From IMG/VR virus record IMGVR_UViG_3300046804_003398: a stretch of DNA of 64,000 nt; one strand, written 5' to 3'. The notes under the pieces are model-generated. The model made no database searches, was not told the DNA's origin, and saw only the letters and a list, made by a program, of their open reading frames with translations. Every line of letters begins with the position of its first letter. Position 1 is the first letter of the stretch. Shown here one piece after another: positions 2,272-20,062 of this stretch. Both the position numbers and the translations under genes were made by a program. The DNA comes from a virus. Taxonomy: Duplodnaviria; Caudoviricetes.

Positions 2272-2514
2272 ATGCGATTATATTCTAAAAACAACAAAGA
2301 AGATCTGTTTGATATCTTTAACATTGATATCCATCTTCCCACATTCAAATGGGAAACACAGCCAGGAACTTCCTGGGGAAATGATCTTCCAACAAATTGT
2401 GTTGATATCAAAGTAAATACACAATTGATTTACCGCAAAGATAAGATTTGGACTTATTTTGAATTGACTTTGCTAGGATTTGGCTTTAGTGTCACTAAAC
2501 AAACTGGTTACTAA
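2272..2514 (+). CDS. hypothetical protein
   Basis: 80-aa ORF; C-terminus LLGFGFSVTKQTGY resembles the LLGFGIGFLRQNGY end of 38345-38611. Confidence 0.6.
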   Translation: MRLYSKNNKEDLFDIFNIDIHLPTFKWETQPGTSWGNDLPTNCVDIKVNTQLIYRKDKIWTYFELTLLGFGFSVTKQTGY

Positions 2515-2517
2515 TTT

Positions 2518-2964
2518 ATGAAATACAGAATTTGGAGCAAAAATGCTGAATGTTATACTCACGAACCTGAATATCCTGGTTCATCACTACATTGCGCATC
2601 AAACTATTACCTAGATAGTGATGGTAACATTGTTGACTTTGTAACAACTATTGGTGGTAATCAAGATGATGCATCAAAATGTGATGTAGACCAAGAAGCT
2701 TATACTATTGAACTATGCACTGGTTTCAAAGCCACTAATGGTGAATACCTATATGAAGGTGATATTGTAGAAATGCCATTGGGTATCAAAACTACAATTG
2801 GTAGAGTTGTATATGAACATTTTGGTTTTATGATTTATGAACGAACTGGTGGTGTTCTACAATTTGTTCAAAAACCATACACTTATATGGGTAATTATAA
2901 CAAAAATCCAGAAATACTTACTGCTCCCGTCAAAATTGATAATGGTAGCGTAGGAGGACATTAA
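2518..2964 (+). CDS. YopX-family protein
   Basis: KYRIWSK, LCTGFKATNGEYLYEGDIV, MGNYNKNPEIL. Confidence 0.7.
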   Translation: MKYRIWSKNAECYTHEPEYPGSSLHCASNYYLDSDGNIVDFVTTIGGNQDDASKCDVDQEAYTIELCTGFKATNGEYLYEGDIVEMPLGIKTTIGRVVYEHFGFMIYERTGGVLQFVQKPYTYMGNYNKNPEILTAPVKIDNGSVGGH

Positions 2965-2967
2965 TAT

Positions 2968-3168
2968 ATGAAATGTATCAAACGAGGAACTCCTCCAGAA
3001 CAAAGAGTATGGGAAGGTGATTGTTATAATTGCAATTCCAAATTTGAAGCACTTGAAGGTGAATTGGTTAATTTTGTAAATGACCCAAAAGATCATACCA
3101 GAATGGCAAAAGCAAAATGTGAAGTATGTAATGCAGAATTCTGGCTGTATCCAAAGAAAAATAGATGA
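2968..3168 (+). CDS. small Zn-finger protein
   Basis: CYNC...CEVC. Confidence 0.6.
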   Translation: MKCIKRGTPPEQRVWEGDCYNCNSKFEALEGELVNFVNDPKDHTRMAKAKCEVCNAEFWLYPKKNR

Positions 3169-3268
3169 ATACCAACATTACATCTGAACAACCCTATACT
3201 AGATACTTTTTAACCAACTCAAAAACAAAAGTAGCTAAAGTAAGAATTGTTCTATTATATAAATCAAA

Positions 3269-3718
3269 ATGAGAGAATTCATTTACAGAATTTGGGATAA
3301 GGAAGCCAAGAAATATGTGATGATAGGATCACTATATGGTTGTGAAGGCACTGCTGGATTATCTTGTTATTTCAATCGTAATACTCATGTCGTGGAAGAA
3401 TATACAGGTCTACATGATAGTAAAGGTAACAAAATTTTTGAGGGTGATATTCTATACTTTGTTGGTAGATATATTTACACTGAACCAGTTGAAGTTATTT
3501 ATTATGGATCTTCATATGGATGCATCACACATGATGAACGTGGTGTTTTGAAAGAATATACAGATCTAAGACATATTGTTGAACAATATCATCCAGAAGT
3601 TATTGGTAATAGACATCAGTTGCCTTGTAAACCAGATCACAATGGCGAGTGTATCCATTGCGACTGTTGGCTTACGGACTGTCCGCTTTTGAAAAATGAA
3701 AACAACGGTGAGGTTTGA
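3269..3718 (+). CDS. YopX-family protein with Cys-rich tail
   Basis: FIYRIWDK, EYTGLHDSKGNKIFEGDIL, EVIGN; C-terminal CxxDHxGECxxCDCxxxDC. Confidence 0.75.
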   Translation: MREFIYRIWDKEAKKYVMIGSLYGCEGTAGLSCYFNRNTHVVEEYTGLHDSKGNKIFEGDILYFVGRYIYTEPVEVIYYGSSYGCITHDERGVLKEYTDLRHIVEQYHPEVIGNRHQLPCKPDHNGECIHCDCWLTDCPLLKNENNGEV

Positions 3719-4025
3719 CCACATATATCTTGGTCGAAATGAAAAAGGTCATGATGAATTTTCGTGTGAGATTAATGATACTAAACTTTCTCGTAAAGTC
3801 GGTTTTTGCAAGTATTATCGAACTGATCCGGTGGGAGACAGTTGTTTTATTGAGTATATTCAAATTCAAGAAGAATTCCAAAGAAAAGGATATGCGACCG
3901 CCACAGTGAAAGAACTGCAACGAATGTATCGGTTGGAGTGGGATTATCGGTTCACGGCAGATGGCAGAGAATGGTTCAATGCTTTAATTAATCGAAAAAT
4001 CGTGAATAATTCCACATATGTATGA
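3696..4025 (+). CDS. GNAT-fold acetyltransferase-like protein
   Basis: IEYIQIQEEFQRKGYAT resembles the acetyl-CoA-binding motif A (Q/RxxGxA). Confidence 0.55.
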   Translation: MKTTVRFDHIYLGRNEKGHDEFSCEINDTKLSRKVGFCKYYRTDPVGDSCFIEYIQIQEEFQRKGYATATVKELQRMYRLEWDYRFTADGREWFNALINRKIVNNSTYV

Positions 4026-4051
4026 TATATATTCACTACAAAAGATTGTGC

Positions 4052-4079
4052 TTGATCTTTGAAAACTTGGTGGTAAGAT
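4052..4079 (+). promoter_or_regulatory. sigma70-type promoter (TTGATC-N16-TAAGAT, extended -10)
   Basis: Hexamers read directly; predicted start near 4086 coincides with the 5' end of a long stem. Overlaps a TGATCTTTGAAAA boxA-like string, so the assignment is less certain. Confidence 0.5.
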
Positions 4080-4084
4080 GATTG

Positions 4085-4208
4085 TGTTGTTGGTGATCGT
4101 TCTTTTAACACGGTGGGGGATGTAACCCTTCCAGAACATCATTGAATGGAGGAGTCGCCTCGACCTTTAATCGAAGGGGACCGCCAAAAAGAACGGTTGA
4201 CAACAACA
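4085..4208 (+). ncRNA. unassigned structured RNA (~125 nt, ~20-bp closing helix plus multiloop)
   Basis: TGTTGTTG/CAACAACA and GATCGTTCTTTT/AAAAGAACGGTT pair; internal CGGT/ACCG, GGG/CCC, TTCCA/TGGAG and TCGA/TCGA stems. Confidence 0.55.
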
Positions 4209-4224
4209 AAGTTCGTGGTAAGAT
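4197..4224 (+). promoter_or_regulatory. sigma70-type promoter (TTGACA-N16-TAAGAT) for tRNA cluster 1
   Basis: Perfect -35, TGn extended -10. Confidence 0.7.
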
Positions 4225-4230
4225 GAATAC

Positions 4231-4365
4231 ATGAACAAAGTAGTATACATCACGTTGGGTTTGATAGTTTATCTAGGTCTTATGGTTTTGATCGGAAGAT
4301 TTTGTGGACTATCAAGTGTGGGTGATGAGATCTTTGAAAGTAAAGAAAAGAAAGATAAAGAATAA
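4231..4365 (+). CDS. small single-pass membrane protein (44 aa)
   Basis: MNKVVYITLGLIVYLGLMVLIGRFCG... with a charged tail. Confidence 0.55.
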   Translation: MNKVVYITLGLIVYLGLMVLIGRFCGLSSVGDEIFESKEKKDKE

Positions 4366-4371
4366 TTTTAT

Positions 4372-4448
4372 GGACTCGTAGCTCAGTTGGTCAGAGCTGC
4401 TGGCTTTTAACCAGTAGGTCGGGGGTTCAAATCCCTCCGGGTCCACCA
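4372..4448 (+). tRNA. tRNA-Lys(UUU)
   Basis: Cloverleaf; anticodon loop CTTTTAA; GGTTCAAATCC T-arm; encoded CCA. Confidence 0.95.
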
Positions 4449-4455
4449 ATTTAAT

Positions 4456-4530
4456 GGTCTGTTCGTCTATCGGCTAGGACACTGGACTTTCACTCCGGTA
4501 AGAGGGGTTCGATTCCCCTACAGACTACCA
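4456..4530 (+). tRNA. tRNA-Glu(UUC)
   Basis: Cloverleaf; loop CTTTCAC; GGTTCGATTCC; CCA. Confidence 0.95.
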
Positions 4531-4559
4531 TTTCTGGTTGATCAGTTATCCAGAAGATA

Positions 4560-4745
4560 AAACTGATTTTGGTTTGGCAGAGATCCAAAGTCAAAACTGC
4601 TTGGTGGAGGACATAGGAAACTACGTCCCTAGAGTTGGAAGGTCTCTTAAAAAACTTCTTGGTTGCGGGGTTAGCGCATGGTATACTTGGTTTGTTGGAT
4701 GGATCAAGTATTCACTAAACACATCCAACCCAATTTCAGTTCTTT
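4560..4745 (+). ncRNA. unassigned structured RNA with an H-type pseudoknot
   Basis: GGAC-ATAG-GAAA-CTAC-GTCC hairpin; stem ATACTTGGT/ATCAAGTAT whose loop GTTGGATG pairs perfectly with CATCCAAC (4722-4729); AACTGA/TCAGTT closing pair. Confidence 0.5.
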
Positions 4746-4753
4746 ATAAAATT

Positions 4754-4831
4754 TGCGGGTGAGTGAAACGGATTATCATTCCACGCTCATAACGTGAGAG
4801 ATACTGGGTTCGACTCCCAGACCCGCTACCA
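4754..4831 (+). tRNA. tRNA-Met-type (CAU), 1:72 mismatch
   Basis: Loop CTCATAA; GCGGGT/ACCCGC acceptor; GGTTCGACTCC; CCA. Confidence 0.85.
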
Positions 4832-4835
4832 CTTA

Positions 4836-4910
4836 CGCCCGGAGAATATCCGATCAATACGCAACACGGAAAGAAACCTCCTCTAAAGGGAAACTTGCTA
4901 GTAGCGGGCG
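4836..4910 (+). other. structured spacer between tRNAs
   Basis: CGCCCG/CGGGCG closing stem with internal CGGA/TCCG, GCAA/TTGC and CCT/AGG stems. Confidence 0.4.
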
Positions 4911-4923
4911 ACAATTTTAAGTT

Positions 4924-4935
4924 AGTTCTTTAACA
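4924..4935 (+). promoter_or_regulatory. boxA-like antitermination element
   Basis: AGTTCTTTAACA versus E. coli rrn boxA TGCTCTTTAACA; similar strings at 4738 and 7539. Confidence 0.5.
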
Positions 4936-4943
4936 AAACAATT

Positions 4944-5030
4944 TGCGGGGTGTCAGAAGTCTGGTATCTGGCTACGCTCATAACGTAGTGCCGTTTGGCC
5001 TCGGAGGTTCAAATCCTCCTCCCGCTACCA
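4944..5030 (+). tRNA. tRNA-Met-type (CAU) with long variable arm
   Basis: CTACG-CTCATAA-CGTAG arm; GCC-GTTT-GGC variable hairpin; GGAGG-TTCAAAT-CCTCC; CCA. Confidence 0.85.
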
Positions 5031-5036
5031 TTTAGT

Positions 5037-5128
5037 GGCCTCAAGATGTAAGGTGCATGGGGAGACTTATAATCTCTATAATCGCTCGATTGGCGTTCTG
5101 GGCAGTTCGATTCTGCATGAGGCTACCA
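5037..5128 (+). tRNA. tRNA-Ile(UAU) with long variable region
   Basis: GGCCTCA/TGAGGCT acceptor; GGAGA-CTTATAA-TCTCT arm; GCAG-TTCGATT-CTGC; CCA. Confidence 0.8.
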
Positions 5129-5133
5129 TTTTT

Positions 5134-5302
5134 GATCGTGTAATGGAATTAGACATACGGATGATGGGTAGCACGAAGTTACGTTACTTGGAGTGGTTTC
5201 CAAGTGTAGTTGAAGCAAATCGTGTCCATCAGACGGGTGCTAGATATAGCCTGACCAGCCTTGAAACTAGTTGTGGGTATTCCAGTCCCACCACGGTCAC
5301 AA
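5134..5302 (+). ncRNA. tRNA-mimic RNA with large insert replacing the anticodon arm
   Basis: GATCGTG/CACGGTC acceptor; Leu/Ser-like D region TAATGGAATTAGAC; GTGGG-TATTCCAGT-CCCAC T-like arm; long inner helix TGATGG..GCACGA/TCGTGT..CCATCA; ends in CAA, not CCA. Confidence 0.6.
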
Positions 5303-5308
5303 TTTACT

Positions 5309-5392
5309 GGGTGTGTGACGGAATGGCAGACGTAGTTGACTCAAAATCAACCGCCGAAAGGCGTGGGGGTTCGACTCCCTCCATACCCACCA
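5309..5392 (+). tRNA. tRNA-Leu(CAA)
   Basis: GTTGA-CTCAAAA-TCAAC; variable arm CGCC-GAAA-GGCG; CCA. Confidence 0.95.
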
Positions 5393-5399
5393 ATTTTTT

Positions 5400-5558
5400 A
5401 TGAGTAACAAAGACGACAAAGAAAGATTCAATAATTTGATCATGACCGGATCGTATGCCACCAATGAAGAACTGGGTTCATTCATGGGTATTGTAATTGT
5501 GTTTGGTTTGATCGCGGCAATTGGATACGGAATTTATTGGTTGGTCAAACATTCCTAA
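5400..5558 (+). CDS. small membrane protein (52 aa)
   Basis: MSNKDDKERFNN...FMGIVIVFGLIAAIGYGIYWLVKHS hydrophobic C-terminal helix. Confidence 0.6.
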   Translation: MSNKDDKERFNNLIMTGSYATNEELGSFMGIVIVFGLIAAIGYGIYWLVKHS

Positions 5559-6429
5559 GTCGTTCTATATTCTCATAATGTTCAGTCCACTCCTTGATAA
5601 ATCTTGGATCTTGTGGAACATCACACTTCAAAGAACGAGGTATCCAATCGCACATTACATTTCCATGTAACTGCCAACGTTGACCATCACCGCCAATGGT
5701 ATAATAATTTCCCCTTCTATAATGATATGCCGTAGTAATTATTCCACCATAATGGAAAAATTCTGGGTAAATATCACTGTCAAAAAAGTGCATGTTTGTG
5801 GTCAACCCATACACTTCACTATTAAAAAATCTAAAATGATCACCACCAGCTGGTTGTGGTAACGTATAAATTCTGTCTGCAATAGGCAATTTACTTTTAG
5901 CTCCTTCACGCAACCTACGCATTGGATAAAACAATGGGTCAGGTGTTGAAGTAAACCATCTGCTGGTTTTATCTATAATTTCTCTCTTGATCCAAAACAA
6001 CGAAGGGTCCATCTTGGGTTCGTTGTCACAATTTGTCACAACATCAAACGTATCTGGCAAATTAAACAAATAATCAAGGTTGTCTAATCGAATGTCGGGT
6101 TCAATAAACAATATGGCTTCACTTGTTGACGCATCCAATCCAACATTCTGTGCATGATCTCTGAAGTCTGTTAGTTTACCATCTTTTCGATAATCAAACA
6201 TATCATTGTGATCAGCCCATATGAAATTGGCAAATGGTAATGTTTGTGTTGTGATGTGAGTGTAATCATACGGACCATCTTTCATTGGCGCCCAAGTCCT
6301 ACTGTTGCAACTGTAGATGTAGTGAATCTTGTTGAAATGGTGGTGGTTATCAATTAGAAACTTTCTGAACAAAGGAAAATCGTGTTCAGGTGCATTGATT
6401 ACAACTATATCTGTGTTTTTAAAATTCAT
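5545..6429 (-). CDS. putative GT-A-fold glycosyltransferase (paralog of 6433-7320)
   Basis: RDHAQNVGLDASTSEAILFIEPDI mirrors the GT2 'RNxGL..a.gdyilflDxD' segment, with EPD at the DxD position. Confidence 0.6.
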   Translation of the reverse strand: MNFKNTDIVVINAPEHDFPLFRKFLIDNHHHFNKIHYIYSCNSRTWAPMKDGPYDYTHITTQTLPFANFIWADHNDMFDYRKDGKLTDFRDHAQNVGLDASTSEAILFIEPDIRLDNLDYLFNLPDTFDVVTNCDNEPKMDPSLFWIKREIIDKTSRWFTSTPDPLFYPMRRLREGAKSKLPIADRIYTLPQPAGGDHFRFFNSEVYGLTTNMHFFDSDIYPEFFHYGGIITTAYHYRRGNYYTIGGDGQRWQLHGNVMCDWIPRSLKCDVPQDPRFIKEWTEHYENIERLRNV

Positions 6430-6432
6430 GAT

Positions 6433-7320
6433 TTACCAGTTTGCAAACTTTCTCATGTTTTGTAAGTGGTGTTTGATTTCCTCGACATATTTTGGGTCCA
6501 GAGGAATATCACACTTTAAACATTGTTCCATATAACGTCCAAGCACATCAAGTTCATACACACCTTCATATATGTCTTTTCTCAAATGCCACATGGTAGC
6601 TACAACACCACCCATGTGACGAAAGTCAAAACTTCTATGATTGATAAAGTGTGCGTTTGTAGATTGTAATATCAACTCGCTTGTAAATTGATTGAAATGA
6701 TCGGTGGCTTGTTTGTCTTTATGAACAAAAAATCTATCCTTGATTGGAATTGTATTTGTCACATATTCACCGTAAGTTGGTCTCATTACCAATACATCAG
6801 GTCCGCTTGTGAATTGAACAATATTATCAAATATGAATTGTCCAGATGCGGTGAACCATCTACGAGTTTTGTCAATCAACTTTCGTCTGGTCCAAATAAA
6901 TGAAGGTGACAGTCTGTAACTGGTATCTTCGCAGTGTGCAATTATGTCCAAGTCATCTGGTAATTTCAATAGATAGTCAATATTACCCACGATGATGTCT
7001 GGCTCCAAAAACAACACCGATTCAGAATTGGATTGATCAAGTGCTTTATTTGTTGCATGATCTCTGAAGTCGCTCAACAATCCATCTTTTCTCCATGTGG
7101 TAATTTCGTTATGATCAGCCCAAATGAAGTTTGCGAATGGCATTGAATCCATTATGGTCTTGGAATAATCATACTTTGCTTCTAGTTGACTTGGTTGATA
7201 ACTAAACACGTAGTGTATTTTGTTGAATAAACAGTGGTTATCAATCAAGAACTTACGAAACAGTGGAAAATCTTGATCTGGCAGACTAACAACAACAATA
7301 TCAGTTTTGGAGAAATCCAT
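6433..7320 (-). CDS. putative GT-A-fold glycosyltransferase (paralog of 5545-6429)
   Basis: RDHATNKALDQSNSESVLFLEPDI; shares DFPLFRKFLIDNH and MPFANFIWADHN with its neighbour. Confidence 0.6.
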   Translation of the reverse strand: MDFSKTDIVVVSLPDQDFPLFRKFLIDNHCLFNKIHYVFSYQPSQLEAKYDYSKTIMDSMPFANFIWADHNEITTWRKDGLLSDFRDHATNKALDQSNSESVLFLEPDIIVGNIDYLLKLPDDLDIIAHCEDTSYRLSPSFIWTRRKLIDKTRRWFTASGQFIFDNIVQFTSGPDVLVMRPTYGEYVTNTIPIKDRFFVHKDKQATDHFNQFTSELILQSTNAHFINHRSFDFRHMGGVVATMWHLRKDIYEGVYELDVLGRYMEQCLKCDIPLDPKYVEEIKHHLQNMRKFANW

Positions 7321-7357
7321 ATAAAATCCTATCGATATGGTATATATATCATGTCGC

Positions 7358-7385
7358 TTGACTAATGTGGTGTATGGTGTAAGAT
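7358..7385 (+). promoter_or_regulatory. sigma70-type promoter (TTGACT-N16-TAAGAT)
   Basis: Lies 12 nt upstream of tRNA-Leu(UAA). Confidence 0.65.
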
Positions 7386-7396
7386 GTTATGTATTC

Positions 7397-14978: not shown

Positions 14979-17900
14979 ATGGCACTACTAGCTCCAAGAT
15001 ATTTAAACGGAACAAACTACAGCGATATATCGACACTCACACCGCAAGATACAAATTACACGATATATCAGCCTGAACGTTATGGTTATCGAATTGGTCA
15101 AGAGAACATAATTCCCTACATCTCGTCTCTTATCTACAAGTATCAACGTGCAGATATTAGTGCCGGCACTCACTGGTGGGGTAGAAAAAGCACAGACCCT
15201 ATGTTTTTGCCAAATACTGCATATCCTGCGATTGATTTGTTGTTATCATCTGGATACAGTGTTGAGACCCAAAATGGATATGAACTAAACGGTGCCGGAA
15301 AGAATGCGACCATTTTAAAGAGAGTGGATGATTATGACAAGACAGGGGGGTATGGTGGATTTGGAATTGTTCCATCTGGAGTTAATTCTTCATATCAAAT
15401 CACAACTTCGGGCACAACATTTACTGCATATTGGCCTGAAGTTTTAACATCTGTTGGAACATACTATTGGCAAAAATCTACAGATGGTGGGACAACATGG
15501 AACACCATCGCGACTGGTGCTGGTCCTACTATTCCAAACTATACTATTTCTACGTTGACTCCGAGTGATTCAGGTAAATACAGATGTGTTGTTTTAACCA
15601 GTCCAGTGTATACTTTTAACAGTGGATATCTCGCCAGTATAGAAATTACAATAACCGAATCAGGTGGAGTATACTTTGTGTCATGGTATTTGAATAACTC
15701 ATCAAACATGTTTTATTCGAATTTCTATGCGGATACTGACGATGTGATTATTCGTGATATGACTTGGGATGGTAATCAAAACAACAACTTCACTGTCAAT
15801 AGTCCCACAAACTCAGGTATATTTATCAAAGGCAAAAGAACACAAATATCAAGATGTAAATTCATAAACTTTGGTGTGGGAAATTCTCTTTATTCATATC
15901 CAGGTCAAGGCGTTGGTGAGTGTTTTGTAATTTTAGCAACAACAACAAACTACAAAACTGATACTGGACCAACAATTGAAGAGTGTGAATTTACTTCGCC
16001 AGGTATTAAAAATGGTCCAGATGTTTCAGGTGCTACACCAGAATATACATGTATAGCATTCAGTGGTTTAGACGCCGTTGTTAAAAACAATAAGTTCTAT
16101 GACTTGAAATTCAATACCAATCAAAGAAGTCCAGTCCACTGTGTCAGTTACGGCGGAAGTTACAACTCAAAGATGATCGGTAACTCATTTGTTAACATTG
16201 ATGGCCAGGCATTTTATGTAGATAGTTATCCAGTCACAGGATCATATATTCAGAACAACTACATAAGTGCTTCATGGTTCGCATTTAGTATAACATCACA
16301 ACCATGGAGTGATCCAAATCAAGTGACCAACTTTAAGGATATTGATTTCAGCAACAACACAGTTATTTTGTCAGATGGTCCAACTACATATGAGTGGTTT
16401 GCTGGTCAAGGTGGAAATGTGTATCCTAGTATTTATTTTGGTTATGTCAAGACTTCTGGTATGGTTACACCATTCAGTAATGTAAAGAGTCATAACAACA
16501 AATTGAAACTTGGTTATTATGATGGATCTGCCCAAAATGGATGGCCTGCCAATTTAGCAGCTGCTGGTGACAGCAGTATTTTATGGTCATTCCCAACTGG
16601 AGGAACTTATTTTGGTGCATCTACGTTTACATCATCAAACGAAACATTAGTAACCAGTTTTCCAACATCAAGTATGCGATTGTCATCCAAGGTAAACAGA
16701 GTTGTTTCGCCTGGTGAACTTTCATATGTTGTATCTAAGGACTCAAACAATCCAATCGGAACTGGAACACAAACTCAAGTAGCCACAGTTTCGTCGTCGT
16801 TCTTAAATCCAAGTAATGGTTCGTTTGTGGTGACCAATTTCAAGAATCTTTCAAAGAATTCTACCTATTATTACTGGTTGAAACACAATGCTGGTAATAT
16901 CTACTATTCATCTAGTTTGTATTTAACGTCAAGCACATATCTTGGAAAGTTCAAGACCAGACCAAACGGATATGAACCATACTCATTTACAGCAAGTTTT
17001 GCAAGTTGTATGCAAAGCAACACTGTATCAACCATATTCAACAAAATCAAGAATTACAATCCCGATGTATTCATTCAAATAGGTGATATATTCTACTGGG
17101 ATGGTAGCCAAGAACCATCATCAACTGCGCAACATGAAAGTGCATATCAAAATGTGTTTTCATCCGCTTCTGGTTACCTATCGTATGGTTCTCCAAATCC
17201 AAACTATTTTCCAAACATGTTAAAGAACGTAGCATTCGACTACATGTGGGACGATCATGACTATGGCAACAACAATTCGGATGGAACCAACGTAAACAAG
17301 GGTCACGCTGCTTTGTCAGTAGCTACGATGGTTCCACACGTTCCGTTCACAGCTCCTACTACAACATACACATCCGCATCAGTGAGTGTGAACTTCCAAC
17401 CAATATATCATTCATGGAACGTAGGAAGAGTCAAGTTTATCATTACCGACAATAGAAGTGAAAGATCTCCATATACTGATCCAGATACGCCATCAAAAGT
17501 TATATGGAGTGCTACACAAGAATCTTGGTTCATGAATGAAGTTCGTGACACAAGATATCCCATAAAATTCTGGGTCAACACATATCCATGGGAAGCAACA
17601 AATTCAGCACCATATGATGGTGATGATGGTTGGGAAGACTATACATACTATAGACAAAAAATTGCCAACTTCTTCACAAGGTTCTCGGGTTCAATTGGCA
17701 AGCTTATTGTGTTGTCTGGTGACGCACACATGACTGCGATAGATGACGGATTGTATTCTACTTGGTATGGTAGTGGAAGTAGATTGTCTCCACCAATGAC
17801 CATATATCATTCAGCACCAATAGATCAGTTTGGTAGCAGAAAAGGTGGACCTTATATGTTAAGCGGGTCAGACATTCTTCGTGGCGGATCAACTGCTACT

Positions 17901-18197
17901 TGGTTAACCAGTGATCCAGACTATGCAGAAGCATTCAATAATTTAAGTTCATCTTATACATCGGCCAACAATAGGTTTGGATGTATTGAAATTGGAGATG
18001 ATCTCACAGGTCTAATAAACATCGATCTATATTCAAGAAGCGGAAATACAGCTACAAATCCACCTTATGCTGGTGATCCTCGTTTTCCAATGGTCAATGG
18101 TAATTATAGAAAGTTAAGATTGACATTGGATGTAAGCAGTTACCTTAGTGGGTCTGGTGGATACATACAACAAAGTTCTAGCTTCTTGGGGTATTAA
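14979..18197 (+). CDS. phoD: beta-helix/Ig-domain protein with C-terminal PhoD alkaline phosphatase
   Basis: Parallel beta-helix repeats, Ig-like YYWQKSTDGG..SDSGKYRCVV; PhoD motifs FASC, IQIGDIFYWD, WDDHDY, DNRSER, VLSGDAH; no signal peptide. Confidence 0.85.
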   Translation: MALLAPRYLNGTNYSDISTLTPQDTNYTIYQPERYGYRIGQENIIPYISSLIYKYQRADISAGTHWWGRKSTDPMFLPNTAYPAIDLLLSSGYSVETQNGYELNGAGKNATILKRVDDYDKTGGYGGFGIVPSGVNSSYQITTSGTTFTAYWPEVLTSVGTYYWQKSTDGGTTWNTIATGAGPTIPNYTISTLTPSDSGKYRCVVLTSPVYTFNSGYLASIEITITESGGVYFVSWYLNNSSNMFYSNFYADTDDVIIRDMTWDGNQNNNFTVNSPTNSGIFIKGKRTQISRCKFINFGVGNSLYSYPGQGVGECFVILATTTNYKTDTGPTIEECEFTSPGIKNGPDVSGATPEYTCIAFSGLDAVVKNNKFYDLKFNTNQRSPVHCVSYGGSYNSKMIGNSFVNIDGQAFYVDSYPVTGSYIQNNYISASWFAFSITSQPWSDPNQVTNFKDIDFSNNTVILSDGPTTYEWFAGQGGNVYPSIYFGYVKTSGMVTPFSNVKSHNNKLKLGYYDGSAQNGWPANLAAAGDSSILWSFPTGGTYFGASTFTSSNETLVTSFPTSSMRLSSKVNRVVSPGELSYVVSKDSNNPIGTGTQTQVATVSSSFLNPSNGSFVVTNFKNLSKNSTYYYWLKHNAGNIYYSSSLYLTSSTYLGKFKTRPNGYEPYSFTASFASCMQSNTVSTIFNKIKNYNPDVFIQIGDIFYWDGSQEPSSTAQHESAYQNVFSSASGYLSYGSPNPNYFPNMLKNVAFDYMWDDHDYGNNNSDGTNVNKGHAALSVATMVPHVPFTAPTTTYTSASVSVNFQPIYHSWNVGRVKFIITDNRSERSPYTDPDTPSKVIWSATQESWFMNEVRDTRYPIKFWVNTYPWEATNSAPYDGDDGWEDYTYYRQKIANFFTRFSGSIGKLIVLSGDAHMTAIDDGLYSTWYGSGSRLSPPMTIYHSAPIDQFGSRKGGPYMLSGSDILRGGSTATWLTSDPDYAEAFNNLSSSYTSANNRFGCIEIGDDLTGLINIDLYSRSGNTATNPPYAGDPRFPMVNGNYRKLRLTLDVSSYLSGSGGYIQQSSSFLGY

Positions 18198-18209
18198 CGA
18201 TTTGAAAAC

Positions 18210-18218
18210 ATATTTATA
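18210..18218 (+). promoter_or_regulatory. recurrent (A/C)TATTTAT(A/T) late-promoter-like motif (representative copy)
   Basis: Also at 12788, 14309, 14961, 40523, 42553, 43547 and 47051 (+) and 9973, 39798, 46992, 57872 and 60452 (-), always 3-16 nt before an ATG on the coding strand. Confidence 0.75.
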
Positions 18219-18223
18219 CTCAT

Positions 18224-20062
18224 ATGATTATTGATTGGGCTGTTTATTATCAACAAAATAAGCATCTTCCATTGAATAGAGTGATGGAAGACTACAAAGT
18301 AATGCTTAACGAGTTTAATGAGATGATGACTCTCATAACTCAACAAAGTGGACAAGCTGCCGGAGGCGGTGGCGGAACAACCCCATCCCCAACACCACCT
18401 GGTCCAACACCAACACCAACACCAACTTCTACAGTCACTCCAACTCCAACAGTCACGGGAACACCAACTCCTACTCCCACTACTACATCAACACCTACGC
18501 CAAGCCCAACGCCTACTGCAACTGCTACATCAACACCTACTCCTACTGTTACTCCGACACCTACTGCAACTCCTGAGCCAGTTTATACGTTTGGTTTATT
18601 AGGTGACAGTGGTCAAGCTGGGTTGTTGACTTATACTCAAGCAGTTGCAGATGGAATTCAAAGTCGCAATCCAGATTGGGTGATACATTTGGGTGATGCA
18701 AACTATAGTGGAATTCCAGAAGTAATGACCAACTTCTTGGATTATTGGTCGAGTTATGATTATGCGAACGACATGTATTTTGCATTTGGTAATCATGATT
18801 TGGATTATGACTATGGTGCTACAATATTGAGTAAATTGACTGCGGTGAATACTCTTATAGGTGCAACAAAAGTAACAAATAGACTTTATTGTTATGATTT
18901 TGTTCGTGGACCAATCCATTTCTTTGTGTTTAATAGCGGTAACAGTCCAGCCGGAGATTCAATGAATGAAGCAATAGATCCTAACATCCAGTTGTCTTCT
19001 CAAATTAGTGAATTGGAACCAAAGATTTTAGCTTCTAGTGCTCCATGGAAGATAGTTGTAGTTCACAGACCACCTTGGTCAAGCGAACAAATTCATAGAA
19101 CTGGAACACCTCCAATGAGATTGGATTATGCGGCTTTGGGTGTTAATGTAGTATTGAGCGCACACTCTCATGATTATGAATATATCTACACCGGTGGAGT
19201 TCCATACTTCGTTCAAGGACTTGGTGGAGCTACAAAACGTTGTGCTGTTGATCCTAGAGTTGATGGCGCAGTATTTGATTTCTGTGATCAATGGGGTTAT
19301 ACCATGGTTTCCGCAACTTCAAATCAATTGACGTTCACAACATATGACATAGATGGTAACACAAGAGATACAAGAGTAATCGCAAAGGGAACACCAACCC
19401 CAACGGCAACTCCTACATCAACACCAACTGTAACGCCAACTCCTACCGTTACACCTACCACTACTCCAACTCCAACACCAGGAGGACCAACGGCTACTCC
19501 TACGCCAACACCTACGATAACTTCAACTCCAACTCCATCACCTACCCCAATTCCATCTTCTACCCTATTACAATCGGGTAGTAATTGGAAATATTTGGAT
19601 GATGGATCTAATCAAGGAACTGCCTGGACCGGTGGTGCGTTTAATGATAGTGCTTGGTCGTCTGGAAATGCTCCTCTTGGATATGGCGATCCAATGACTA
19701 CCACAATCAGTTATGGACCAGATGCTAGTAACAAGTATATAACTTACTACTTCAGAAAACAGATCAACATACCTGATATCTCAGCTGTCACGAATGTGTT
19801 GATTAAGTTGAGAAGAGATGATGGAGCTGTTGTTTATTTCAATGGAACCGAAGTGTTGAGAGACAATATGCCTCTTGGAACAATAACTTATTTGACCACA
19901 GCTGTCGCAGCACAATCTGGTGCTCAAGAAACAACTTATTATGAATTCACTGTGTCTCCATCTTATTTGACTAGTGGCACTAACACCATTGCAGTAGAAA
20001 TCCATCAATCTGGACCTACAAGCAGTGACTTAGGATTTGACATAAGTTTGATTTCCGCATAA
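18224..20062 (+). CDS. purple-acid-phosphatase-like metallophosphoesterase with PT linkers and C-terminal beta-sandwich
   Basis: GD, GDANY, GNHD, VVHRPP and SAHSHDY motifs; two PT tracts; C-terminal WKYLDDGSNQGTAW..APLGYGD..TYYFRK domain. Confidence 0.85.
   Translation: MIIDWAVYYQQNKHLPLNRVMEDYKVMLNEFNEMMTLITQQSGQAAGGGGGTTPSPTPPGPTPTPTPTSTVTPTPTVTGTPTPTPTTTSTPTPSPTPTATATSTPTPTVTPTPTATPEPVYTFGLLGDSGQAGLLTYTQAVADGIQSRNPDWVIHLGDANYSGIPEVMTNFLDYWSSYDYANDMYFAFGNHDLDYDYGATILSKLTAVNTLIGATKVTNRLYCYDFVRGPIHFFVFNSGNSPAGDSMNEAIDPNIQLSSQISELEPKILASSAPWKIVVVHRPPWSSEQIHRTGTPPMRLDYAALGVNVVLSAHSHDYEYIYTGGVPYFVQGLGGATKRCAVDPRVDGAVFDFCDQWGYTMVSATSNQLTFTTYDIDGNTRDTRVIAKGTPTPTATPTSTPTVTPTPTVTPTTTPTPTPGGPTATPTPTPTITSTPTPSPTPIPSSTLLQSGSNWKYLDDGSNQGTAWTGGAFNDSAWSSGNAPLGYGDPMTTTISYGPDASNKYITYYFRKQINIPDISAVTNVLIKLRRDDGAVVYFNGTEVLRDNMPLGTITYLTTAVAAQSGAQETTYYEFTVSPSYLTSGTNTIAVEIHQSGPTSSDLGFDISLISA

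Follow-up and report, generated by a model that had tools for sequence, protein, structure and literature searches.

The element and its place in the tRNA array

The window analysed here, a 64,000-nucleotide stretch of viral DNA from IMG/VR (record IMGVR_UViG_3300046804_003398), carries a tRNA array in which ARAGORN places tRNA starts at 4372, 4456, 4754, 4944, 5037, 5309, 7397 and 8024. All six ARAGORN tRNAs of the block 4372-5392 encode CCA followed by a U-rich linker, and A73-CCA was found in all inspected tRNAs of the array. The CCA of tRNA-Ile ends at 5128 and is followed by a 5-nt U spacer, the element described here, a further 6 nt, and tRNA-Leu(CAA) at 5309. The features of the element were read from the window letters 5134-5302 (+), and consist of an acceptor, a D arm, a bulged rod, a module, a T-like arm and a tail (Table 1).

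Table 1 Features of the element and its neighbouring tRNA genes. Positions refer to the window; n is the numbering within the element (window position = 5133 + n).
Feature	Position	Strand	n	Description
tRNA-Ile(UAU), upstream neighbour	5037-5128	+		92 nt, long variable arm; called by ARAGORN; same gene order in relatives
Whole element	5134-5302	+	1-169	169 nt; covariance model R1 scores 210.7 bits over the full length
Acceptor stem, 5' strand	5134-5140	+	1-7	GATCGTG; pairs with 5292-5298 (159-165)
D arm	5143-5156	+	10-23	3-bp AUG/CAU stem (10-12/21-23), loop GAAUUAGA; 1 of 15 columns variable
Rod replacing the anticodon arm	5158-5235	+	25-102	78 nt; CG/CG, GA/GA, 6 bp, 3-nt bulge, 6 bp, large internal loop, 8-9-bp hairpin
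Terminal loop of the rod	5193-5198	+	60-65	GUGGUU; 0 of 6 columns variable vs 11 of 16 in its own stem
Variable-arm module	5239-5271	+	106-138	33 nt; AGAUA 109-113, loop YURACCA 118-124, CCUUGAAA 126-133 (UGAAA 129-133)
T-like arm	5273-5291	+	140-158	5-bp stem GTGGG/CCCAC (140-144/154-158); non-canonical 8-9-nt loop (9 nt in the window)
Acceptor stem, 3' strand	5292-5298	+	159-165	CACGGTC; directly abuts the T stem, giving a 12-bp minihelix
Discriminator and 3' tail	5299-5302	+		ACAA in the window; all 4 columns variable over 24 variants
tRNA-Leu(CAA), downstream neighbour and probable parent	5309-5392	+		Called by ARAGORN and Rfam

The MFE fold of the element (-53.9 kcal/mol, z = -2.8) gives the acceptor, the D arm, the rod and the T-like arm. 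U8-A9 is present after the 7-bp acceptor, and the D loop GAAUUAGA has an A at position 18 in place of the canonical G18-G19 of the tRNA elbow. The rod, with the arms TGATGG..GCACGA and TCGTGT..CCATCA and the cap ACTTGGA-GTGGTT-TCCAAGT, is composed of the helices 29-34/93-98 and 38-43/87-92, separated by a 3-nt bulge, and of a terminal hairpin (52-60/65-73) with the loop G-UGGU-U. It amounts to ~27 bp and is capped by a loop of 4-6 nt, where an anticodon stem would carry a loop of 7 nt. The acceptor, the long helix with its hairpin cap, the T-like stem with a 9-nt loop, U3-G70 and the in-phase position had all been described in the initial annotation of this DNA; each is in the sequence, and the MFE fold agrees. 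The sequence that had been read as small hairpins following the long helix is also there, but constitutes a single, nearly invariant 33-nt module. Likewise, the CAA noted instead of CCA holds for the window but is specific to it, as the tails of relatives differ, although they are never CCA.

The tRNA block contains a number of other features. Two CAU tRNAs (4754-4831 and 4944-5030, +) have an initiator-like U1-U72 mismatch; the tRNA at 4944-5030 (87 nt) has, unusually for tRNA-Met, a long variable arm, and its counterpart in the locus L002 is of normal size and initiator-like. The class II-like 92-nt tRNA at 5037-5128 (UAU) has the same sequence in the window, in L001 and in L002, and is as tightly conserved as the element. 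The spacer between tRNA-Glu and the first tRNA-Met (4542-4705, +) has a depth of ~90-130 in three of four RNA libraries, above that of the neighbouring tRNAs, and may be another stable structured RNA. Several RNA genes of the array are preceded, at a distance of 10-20 nt, by a recurring motif GTTCTTT(A/G)(A/T)AA.. (4926-4943, 4738-4753 and 7538-7559, +; also in L002), a candidate processing site or promoter element.

Further downstream, an RNA of ~306 nt (7560-7865, +) lies behind a TTGACA/TATACT promoter. Its summed contig depth reaches ~2,500-19,000 in four river metatranscriptomes, compared with single-digit flanks, and the best Rfam result is a weak manA match (19 bits, E 0.08). Head-to-tail joints of this RNA (7865-G-7560, with variant tails) are seen in three runs, which tandem copies in related phages may explain. 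Directly 3' of this abundant RNA, at 7867-8016 (+), are two tRNA-like units with the same odd anticodon arm CTCACATTCCAGTGAG, for which neither ARAGORN nor Rfam made a call. The window also encodes three YopX-family paralogues upstream of the tRNA array (433-801, 2518-2964 and 3269-3718, +) and a SpoU-type RNA methyltransferase (10287-10841). In a relative (L045:661-736, +), ARAGORN identifies a tRNA with the anticodon CUA (an amber suppressor, labelled Pyl), which hints at TAG recoding in part of the phage group.

Homologues, synteny and covariation

Two IMG/VR loci were found using an exact 19-mer of the T arm, and L044, L045/L047 and L046 by further patterns. A metagenome scan with a degenerate module pattern gave 30 additional loci, all from freshwater-type samples and including contigs of 248 kb and 296 kb. 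In total, 37 loci on viral or metagenomic contigs from freshwater were collected, with 24 different full-length variants among them (alignment A2). Looser pattern scans (TACTTGGAGT..CCTTGAAA and GGAATTAGAC..CCTTGAAA) returned mostly chance matches, with no further member found by R1 among the GGAATTAGAC..CCTTGAAA matches, while the pattern CCATCAGACGGGTGCTAGA gave one chance match (L048). GTDB genome contigs contain no exact match to the module pattern, hence there is no host or prophage lead from this source. Use of the 294-aa ORF at 5545-6429 as a protein route yielded no related locus in IMG/VR. When relatives were sought among cultured phages, blastn gave generic tRNA similarity only, and proteins a distant phosphatase domain and no match for the helicase. 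Judging from sequence, the carriers are a clade of uncultured freshwater jumbo phages without a cultured relative.

Exactly one R1 match is present per locus and per record; the remaining matches, at 13-20 bits, are genuine tRNAs only, including tRNA-Leu. This includes G001, a 295.8-kb relative rated 100% complete by CheckV, which carries a single copy of the element. In every inspected locus the element is followed by tRNA-Leu(CAA). Nucleotide similarity between the window and L001 is limited to the tRNA array. In L044-type relatives small ORFs are found between tRNA-Ile and the element, which is equally conserved in these arrays.

In the alignment of the 24 variants, pairing is kept in 98.3% of cells and both sides have changed in 13 pairs, whereas slid alignments gave 0-2 compensatory pairs and none of 500 shuffles reached the observed value. 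Five of the compensatory pairs are located in the rod helices 25-34/93-102 and 38-43/87-92, and four in the terminal hairpin. Two occur in the T stem, where GC is replaced by AU, and the acceptor pair 3:163 is also compensatory. This third acceptor pair, equivalent to tRNA 3:70, is CG in ten variants, UA in ten and UG in four, the window having U3-G70. Variable columns make up 40-69% of the stems, as opposed to 0 of 3 at positions 103-105 and 4 of 33 in the module, the columns of which are partly fixed by the degenerate module search pattern itself. The T-loop varies in 7 of 9 columns, with CA alone kept throughout. The 3' tails of relatives read ACAU, UACA, CACA, CAAA or UUUU, with A, U or C as the discriminator, and an encoded CCA tail was found in none of the 24 full-length variants.

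The D-arm and module search patterns fixed different regions, and neither fixed the GUGGUU hexaloop. The module is unchanged in loci found by the D-arm pattern alone, and the D arm is unchanged in the loci found through the module. The family is narrow (mean identity ~94% across the 24 variants), so that several of the invariant parts could partly reflect shallow divergence. The pattern of change indicates purifying selection on the element, which, by these comparisons, is a real, selected, single-copy family that is narrow in spread.

One locus (L068:4639-4731, -) carries a variant that precisely lacks the rod, by a 74-nt deletion between two ACGG repeats. Like the full-length element, it is missed by ARAGORN and, at gathering thresholds as well as at E<=10, by Rfam. 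Either the rod is dispensable or the rod-less copy is defective. The L068 variant also has U138G, which would strengthen an alternative small hairpin of the module.

Comparison with known RNA families

Searches with Rfam 15 gave nothing overlapping 5134-5302, either at gathering thresholds or at E<=10, with ordinary tRNAs as the only matches. ARAGORN reported neither a tRNA nor a tmRNA at this position, and a literature search found no description of this RNA family. The initial annotation had proposed a novel, tRNA-shaped non-coding RNA, to be checked against Rfam and ARAGORN and by covariation among homologues. This proposal is upheld by 37 loci with 13 compensatory pairs and by the lack of a match to any Rfam family, including tRNA, tmRNA and YrlA. 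The outcome it had named as adverse, a decayed tRNA with no homologues or covariation, is not what was observed, and contigs from RNA libraries cover the element.

Compared with a tRNA, the 7+5-bp acceptor/T minihelix is present, with covariation, and encoded NCCA is seen in 0 of 24 variants. The elbow formed by G18-G19 and a UUCRANN T-loop is lacking, the T-loop being 8-9 nt long and variable. The element resembles tmRNA in having tRNA ends around a large insert. As the initial annotation had pointed out, it is unlike tmRNA in being about half the size and in having no G3-U70; over the 24 variants position 3:70 is CG, UA or UG, in which the U belongs to the 5' strand. Furthermore, CCA and a tag frame are both missing, and none of the tmRNA families in Rfam matched. 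A group I intron would require >=200 nt, a P1-P9 core and normal tRNA exons; the insert measures 74-78 nt and has no Rfam intron match.

Bacterial Y RNAs, some of which are phage-encoded, had also been put forward as a parallel. In common with the element, YrlA and its relatives (RF02553) are non-decoding and have a tRNA-like body on a long helix. However, the ends of YrlA form the Ro-binding helix and its acceptor-like stem is closed, whereas the element ends in its acceptor stem. There is no match to RF02553 or RF00019, and the TROVE protein (PF05731) is absent from the complete relative G001, such that the likeness to Y RNAs is weak.

The T4 tRNA cluster encodes RNA C, a stable RNA for which no role is known (PMC3014915, PMC9697503). 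In the fold of T4 RNA C (species 1 RNA, 139 nt), a long helix and a second hairpin are enclosed by a T arm and a closing stem that resembles an acceptor. Both it and RNA D share with the element an in-phase position inside a phage tRNA cluster and the lack of a decoding function. The tRNA-cluster location and tRNA-like ends of RNA C recur in the element, which is present in RNA libraries, but there is no sequence homology; R1 gave no match at E<=1 in the T4 tRNA region. RNA C differs from the element in its canonical UUCGAAU T-loop and in the absence of a Leu-type D arm, and it contains neither the UGGU/ACCA loops nor the CCUUGAAA module. T4 RNA C is nevertheless the closest known analogue of the element.

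Probable origin from tRNA-Leu(CAA)

The D arm of the element corresponds to that of tRNA-Leu(CAA) with GGC, including G18-G19, replaced by U (cf. AUGGAAUGGCAGACAU), so that G18 is lost and the loop is shorter. The arm in the variable position is in keeping with an ancestor of class II. R1 gives weak matches over the full length to genuine tRNAs only, tRNA-Leu among them. More generally, the element shares with class II tRNA-Leu (RF00005) the 7-bp acceptor and 5-bp T stem, a D stem of 3 bp closed by a Leu-type loop, the nucleotides U8, A14 and A21, and the arm at the variable position. The element differs in lacking an anticodon stem-loop, G18 and CCA, and in having a non-canonical T-loop of 8-9 nt and a variable discriminator. 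On this comparison, the adjacent class II tRNA-Leu(CAA) was evidently duplicated to give rise to the element.

A second tRNA-Leu(CAA) derivative of 91 nt is located between the element and tRNA-Leu(CAA) in L044 (6786-6876, -). It has a canonical T arm, a 10-bp anticodon stem with an 8-nt loop and no CCA (MFE z = -3.4), and is not called by ARAGORN. Its presence in L044-type arrays implies that tRNA-Leu(CAA) spawned non-canonical copies more than once.

The module and the UGGU and ACCA loops

Two folds fit the module equally well. The first has a 5-bp closing stem and an inner 2-bp helix, with 117:125 being CG, UA or AU in 22 of 24 variants, while the second consists of two small hairpins. The module contains the pentamers AGAUA (109-113) and UGAAA (129-133), although A109-G110 may pair in the closing stem. 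In a double T-loop, two such loops form an interdigitated three-dimensional fold that stacks on the tRNA G19:C56 pair. AG..A and UG..A pentamers characterise the elbow-docking double T-loops of the L1 stalk, RNase P and T-box Stem I (Lehmann et al., PMC3664808). E. coli 23S rRNA has AGGAUA at 2114-2119 and UGAAA at 2167-2171, and its CCUUGAAA at 2164-2171 equals module positions 126-133. The region around 2164-2171 is the second T-loop of the L1 stalk (PMC3664808). In the element, the AGAUA and UGAAA pentamers flank a small inner hairpin, and the likeness to the L1-stalk T-loops is one at the motif level only. Unlike the L1 stalk, RNase P or the T-box, the element would be a free-standing tRNA-shaped RNA, as opposed to part of an rRNA, a ribozyme or an mRNA leader.

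The sequence RACCA (120-124; 5253-5257) in the module is complementary to UGGUU (61-65) in the rod loop in 23 of 24 variants. The UGGU of the rod loop is also complementary to the A73-C-C-A 3' ends of tRNAs. In the T-box, UGGN pairs with NCCA (reviewed in PMC4919913 and PMC7583486). The element exposes an invariant UGGU in a loop and the tRNAs of the array have A73, but there is no terminator or antiterminator context, and no variation from which covariation could arise. As UGGU and ACCA are both invariant, covariation cannot decide whether the contact would be made in cis or in trans.

Three further readings of local sequence were considered and rejected. YURACCA is not an anticodon loop, as it is variable at position 34, has a C at position 37 and sits on a stem of just 2 bp. 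The tandem GA/GA at the rod base as a kink-turn or protein site is at odds with the variation of those columns. A sarcin-ricin-like AGUA/GAA in the internal loop could not be reconciled with the flanking pairs.

Presence in RNA libraries

Six river metatranscriptome runs contain the element stretch, and four of these were mapped as contigs. RNA-library contigs extend over 5130-5343, 4942-5372 and 5021-5220; the rod is present in them, and polycistronic contigs span the element together with its tRNA neighbours. Contigs identical to the window have a depth of 29-34, compared with ~3-4 for flanking coding contigs, but the summed depth is inflated relative to the flanks as the array is the sole part shared among co-occurring strains, and contigs give neither RNA ends nor levels. 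In a single contig (X18, depth 119), 5302 is joined head-to-tail to 5130 via one extra A. This junction could reflect a circular RNA, reverse-transcriptase template switching at RNA ends or a tandem-copy strain; R1 detected no tandem copies of the element in the 37 DNA loci.

A T4 Rnl1-family RNA ligase (tRNA-repair type; PF09511, 56.9 bits) is encoded at L080:1258-2349 (+), which corresponds to ~287.5-288.6 kb of G001 and lies 8.3 kb from the element in that genome. An Rnl1-like ligase was not found in the 64-kb window. RtcB, TROVE and the CCA-adding enzyme family had no match in the records of relatives, namely the complete G001 and the fragments G002 and G003, for which, as fragments, an absence carries little weight. 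The ORFs of the window offered no candidate for a partner protein: Pfam and PHROGs were blank for the ORFs between the tRNA blocks, and ten further window ORFs gave nothing relevant to RNA.

A proposed role in trans and its alternatives

We favour, with a probability of roughly 0.6, a role in which the element acts in trans through its tRNA-like body and invariant loops. It would most likely behave as a tRNA-like ligand or mimic, with a tRNA-handling protein or another tRNA as its partner. The element would be the gene for a stable, non-decoding RNA that was duplicated from tRNA-Leu(CAA). Having kept the 12-bp acceptor/T minihelix, U8-A9 and the Leu-type D arm, it would be excised from the polycistronic transcript by the same nucleases that release its neighbours. 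The D arm, the GUGGUU loop and the module with its T-loop signatures and ACCA loop, as three invariant single-stranded parts, would then serve as the working surfaces, and the UGGU/ACCA complementarity would either close the fold in cis or capture a tRNA 3' end. It is in this sense that we infer the processing, stability, binding partner and role of the element. The RNA cannot decode, as it has no anticodon loop. As it also lacks CCA, a conserved discriminator and a canonical elbow, it is unlikely to be aminoacylated. The absence of an anticodon loop also makes a decoy for anticodon nucleases, as originally suggested, unlikely. The accompanying suggestion of T-box or uncharged-tRNA sensing retains some force, as the invariant UGGU is complementary to ACCA, but this points to a CCA-end binder or a T-box/CCA mimic rather than a simple decoy.

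A role in cis could instead be envisaged, whereby the element is a tRNA-shaped 'punctuation' that recruits RNase P/E or blocks exonucleases to aid processing or stability, and the excised RNA itself has no job. The in-phase position between two tRNAs with A/U-rich linkers, the polycistronic contigs, and the retention of the minihelix needed by RNase P as the only part kept are all consistent with this. We nevertheless consider it unlikely: the neighbouring tRNAs already supply RNase P sites, which renders extra punctuation superfluous, and punctuation leaves the invariant 33-nt module, hexaloop and D arm beside covarying stems unexplained. In addition, the L044-type element is split from tRNA-Ile by small ORFs yet equally conserved. 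A more specific trans mechanism is that of a tRNA caliper, comparable to a T-box leader or RNase P, with the T-loop module placed on a tRNA elbow and UGGU on a free ACCA end, that captures or senses uncharged tRNA. It draws on the identity of UGGU with the T-box motif, the A73-CCA of the inspected array tRNAs, the AG..A and UG..A pentamers and the CCUUGAAA shared with the L1-stalk T-loop 2 region. On the other hand, covariation is absent for both contacts, the motifs being invariant, the module fold is ambiguous with AGAUA overlapping a possible closing stem, and the internal ACCA loop is a simpler partner, in cis; we regard this mechanism as quite unlikely. In an extension that we hold to be just as doubtful, the internal ACCA loop would be a pseudo-substrate that keeps the RNA closed until an uncharged tRNA competes, and the 5302-5130 junction of the X18 type could mean a circle ligated by the phage Rnl1-type ligase. 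If the caliper were true, the phage would capture, protect or sense uncharged tRNAs, for example by shielding 3' ends from host toxins or by blunting starvation signalling.

The remaining explanations fit the data poorly. That the element is an unusual decoding tRNA, with the rod and part of the module being introns removed by an unknown pathway, is suggested by the natural L068 variant that lacks exactly the rod, and by the CUUGAAA end of the module, which on its own resembles an anticodon loop (U33, UGA, A37). However, ARAGORN and Rfam fail to detect the rod-less variant as a tRNA, a stem that would close a 7-nt anticodon loop is missing, and the rod, at 74 nt, is much too small for a group I intron, lacks an Rfam intron match and is retained in RNA-library contigs. 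Together with the variable discriminator, the missing CCA and the non-canonical T-loop, this makes a decoding function highly improbable. The tRNA-derived ends, the degenerate T-loop and, again, the lack of CCA might also be expected of a decaying tRNA pseudogene with a palindromic insertion, or of a small selfish element. Compensatory changes in five helices, invariant loops, a single syntenic copy across 37 loci and conservation far above that of the flanking DNA leave very little room for either. We similarly assign a very low probability to a Ro60/Rsr scaffold of the Y RNA/YrlA kind or a tmRNA-related mimic. The fusion of a tRNA-like module to a long helix is indeed reminiscent of YrlA and tmRNA, but none of the YrlA, Y RNA and tmRNA families of Rfam matches, a TROVE gene is absent from the complete relative, and the RNA ends in an acceptor stem as opposed to a Ro-binding stem. 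Position 3:70 is never G-U, both CCA and a reading frame with a resume codon are missing, and no tmRNA was called by ARAGORN.

Discussion

Phage tRNA clusters are usually viewed as codon-supply or anti-defence cassettes. The element described here is a tRNA-derived non-coding RNA of such a cluster, where a tRNA gene was rebuilt, under strong selection, into an RNA that is unable to decode. It has on display motifs that are used elsewhere to grip tRNAs, namely the signatures of T-loops and, in UGGU, the complement of a CCA end. With 169 nt and one copy, the element is a compact candidate for biochemistry. If it were to bind tRNAs or tRNA-handling enzymes, it would represent a trans-acting counterpart of T-box/RNase P recognition, and a new viral means of interfering with the tRNA pool of the host. 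Alongside T4 RNA C and RNA D, which have been unexplained for 50 years, it indicates a neglected class of viral non-coding RNAs.
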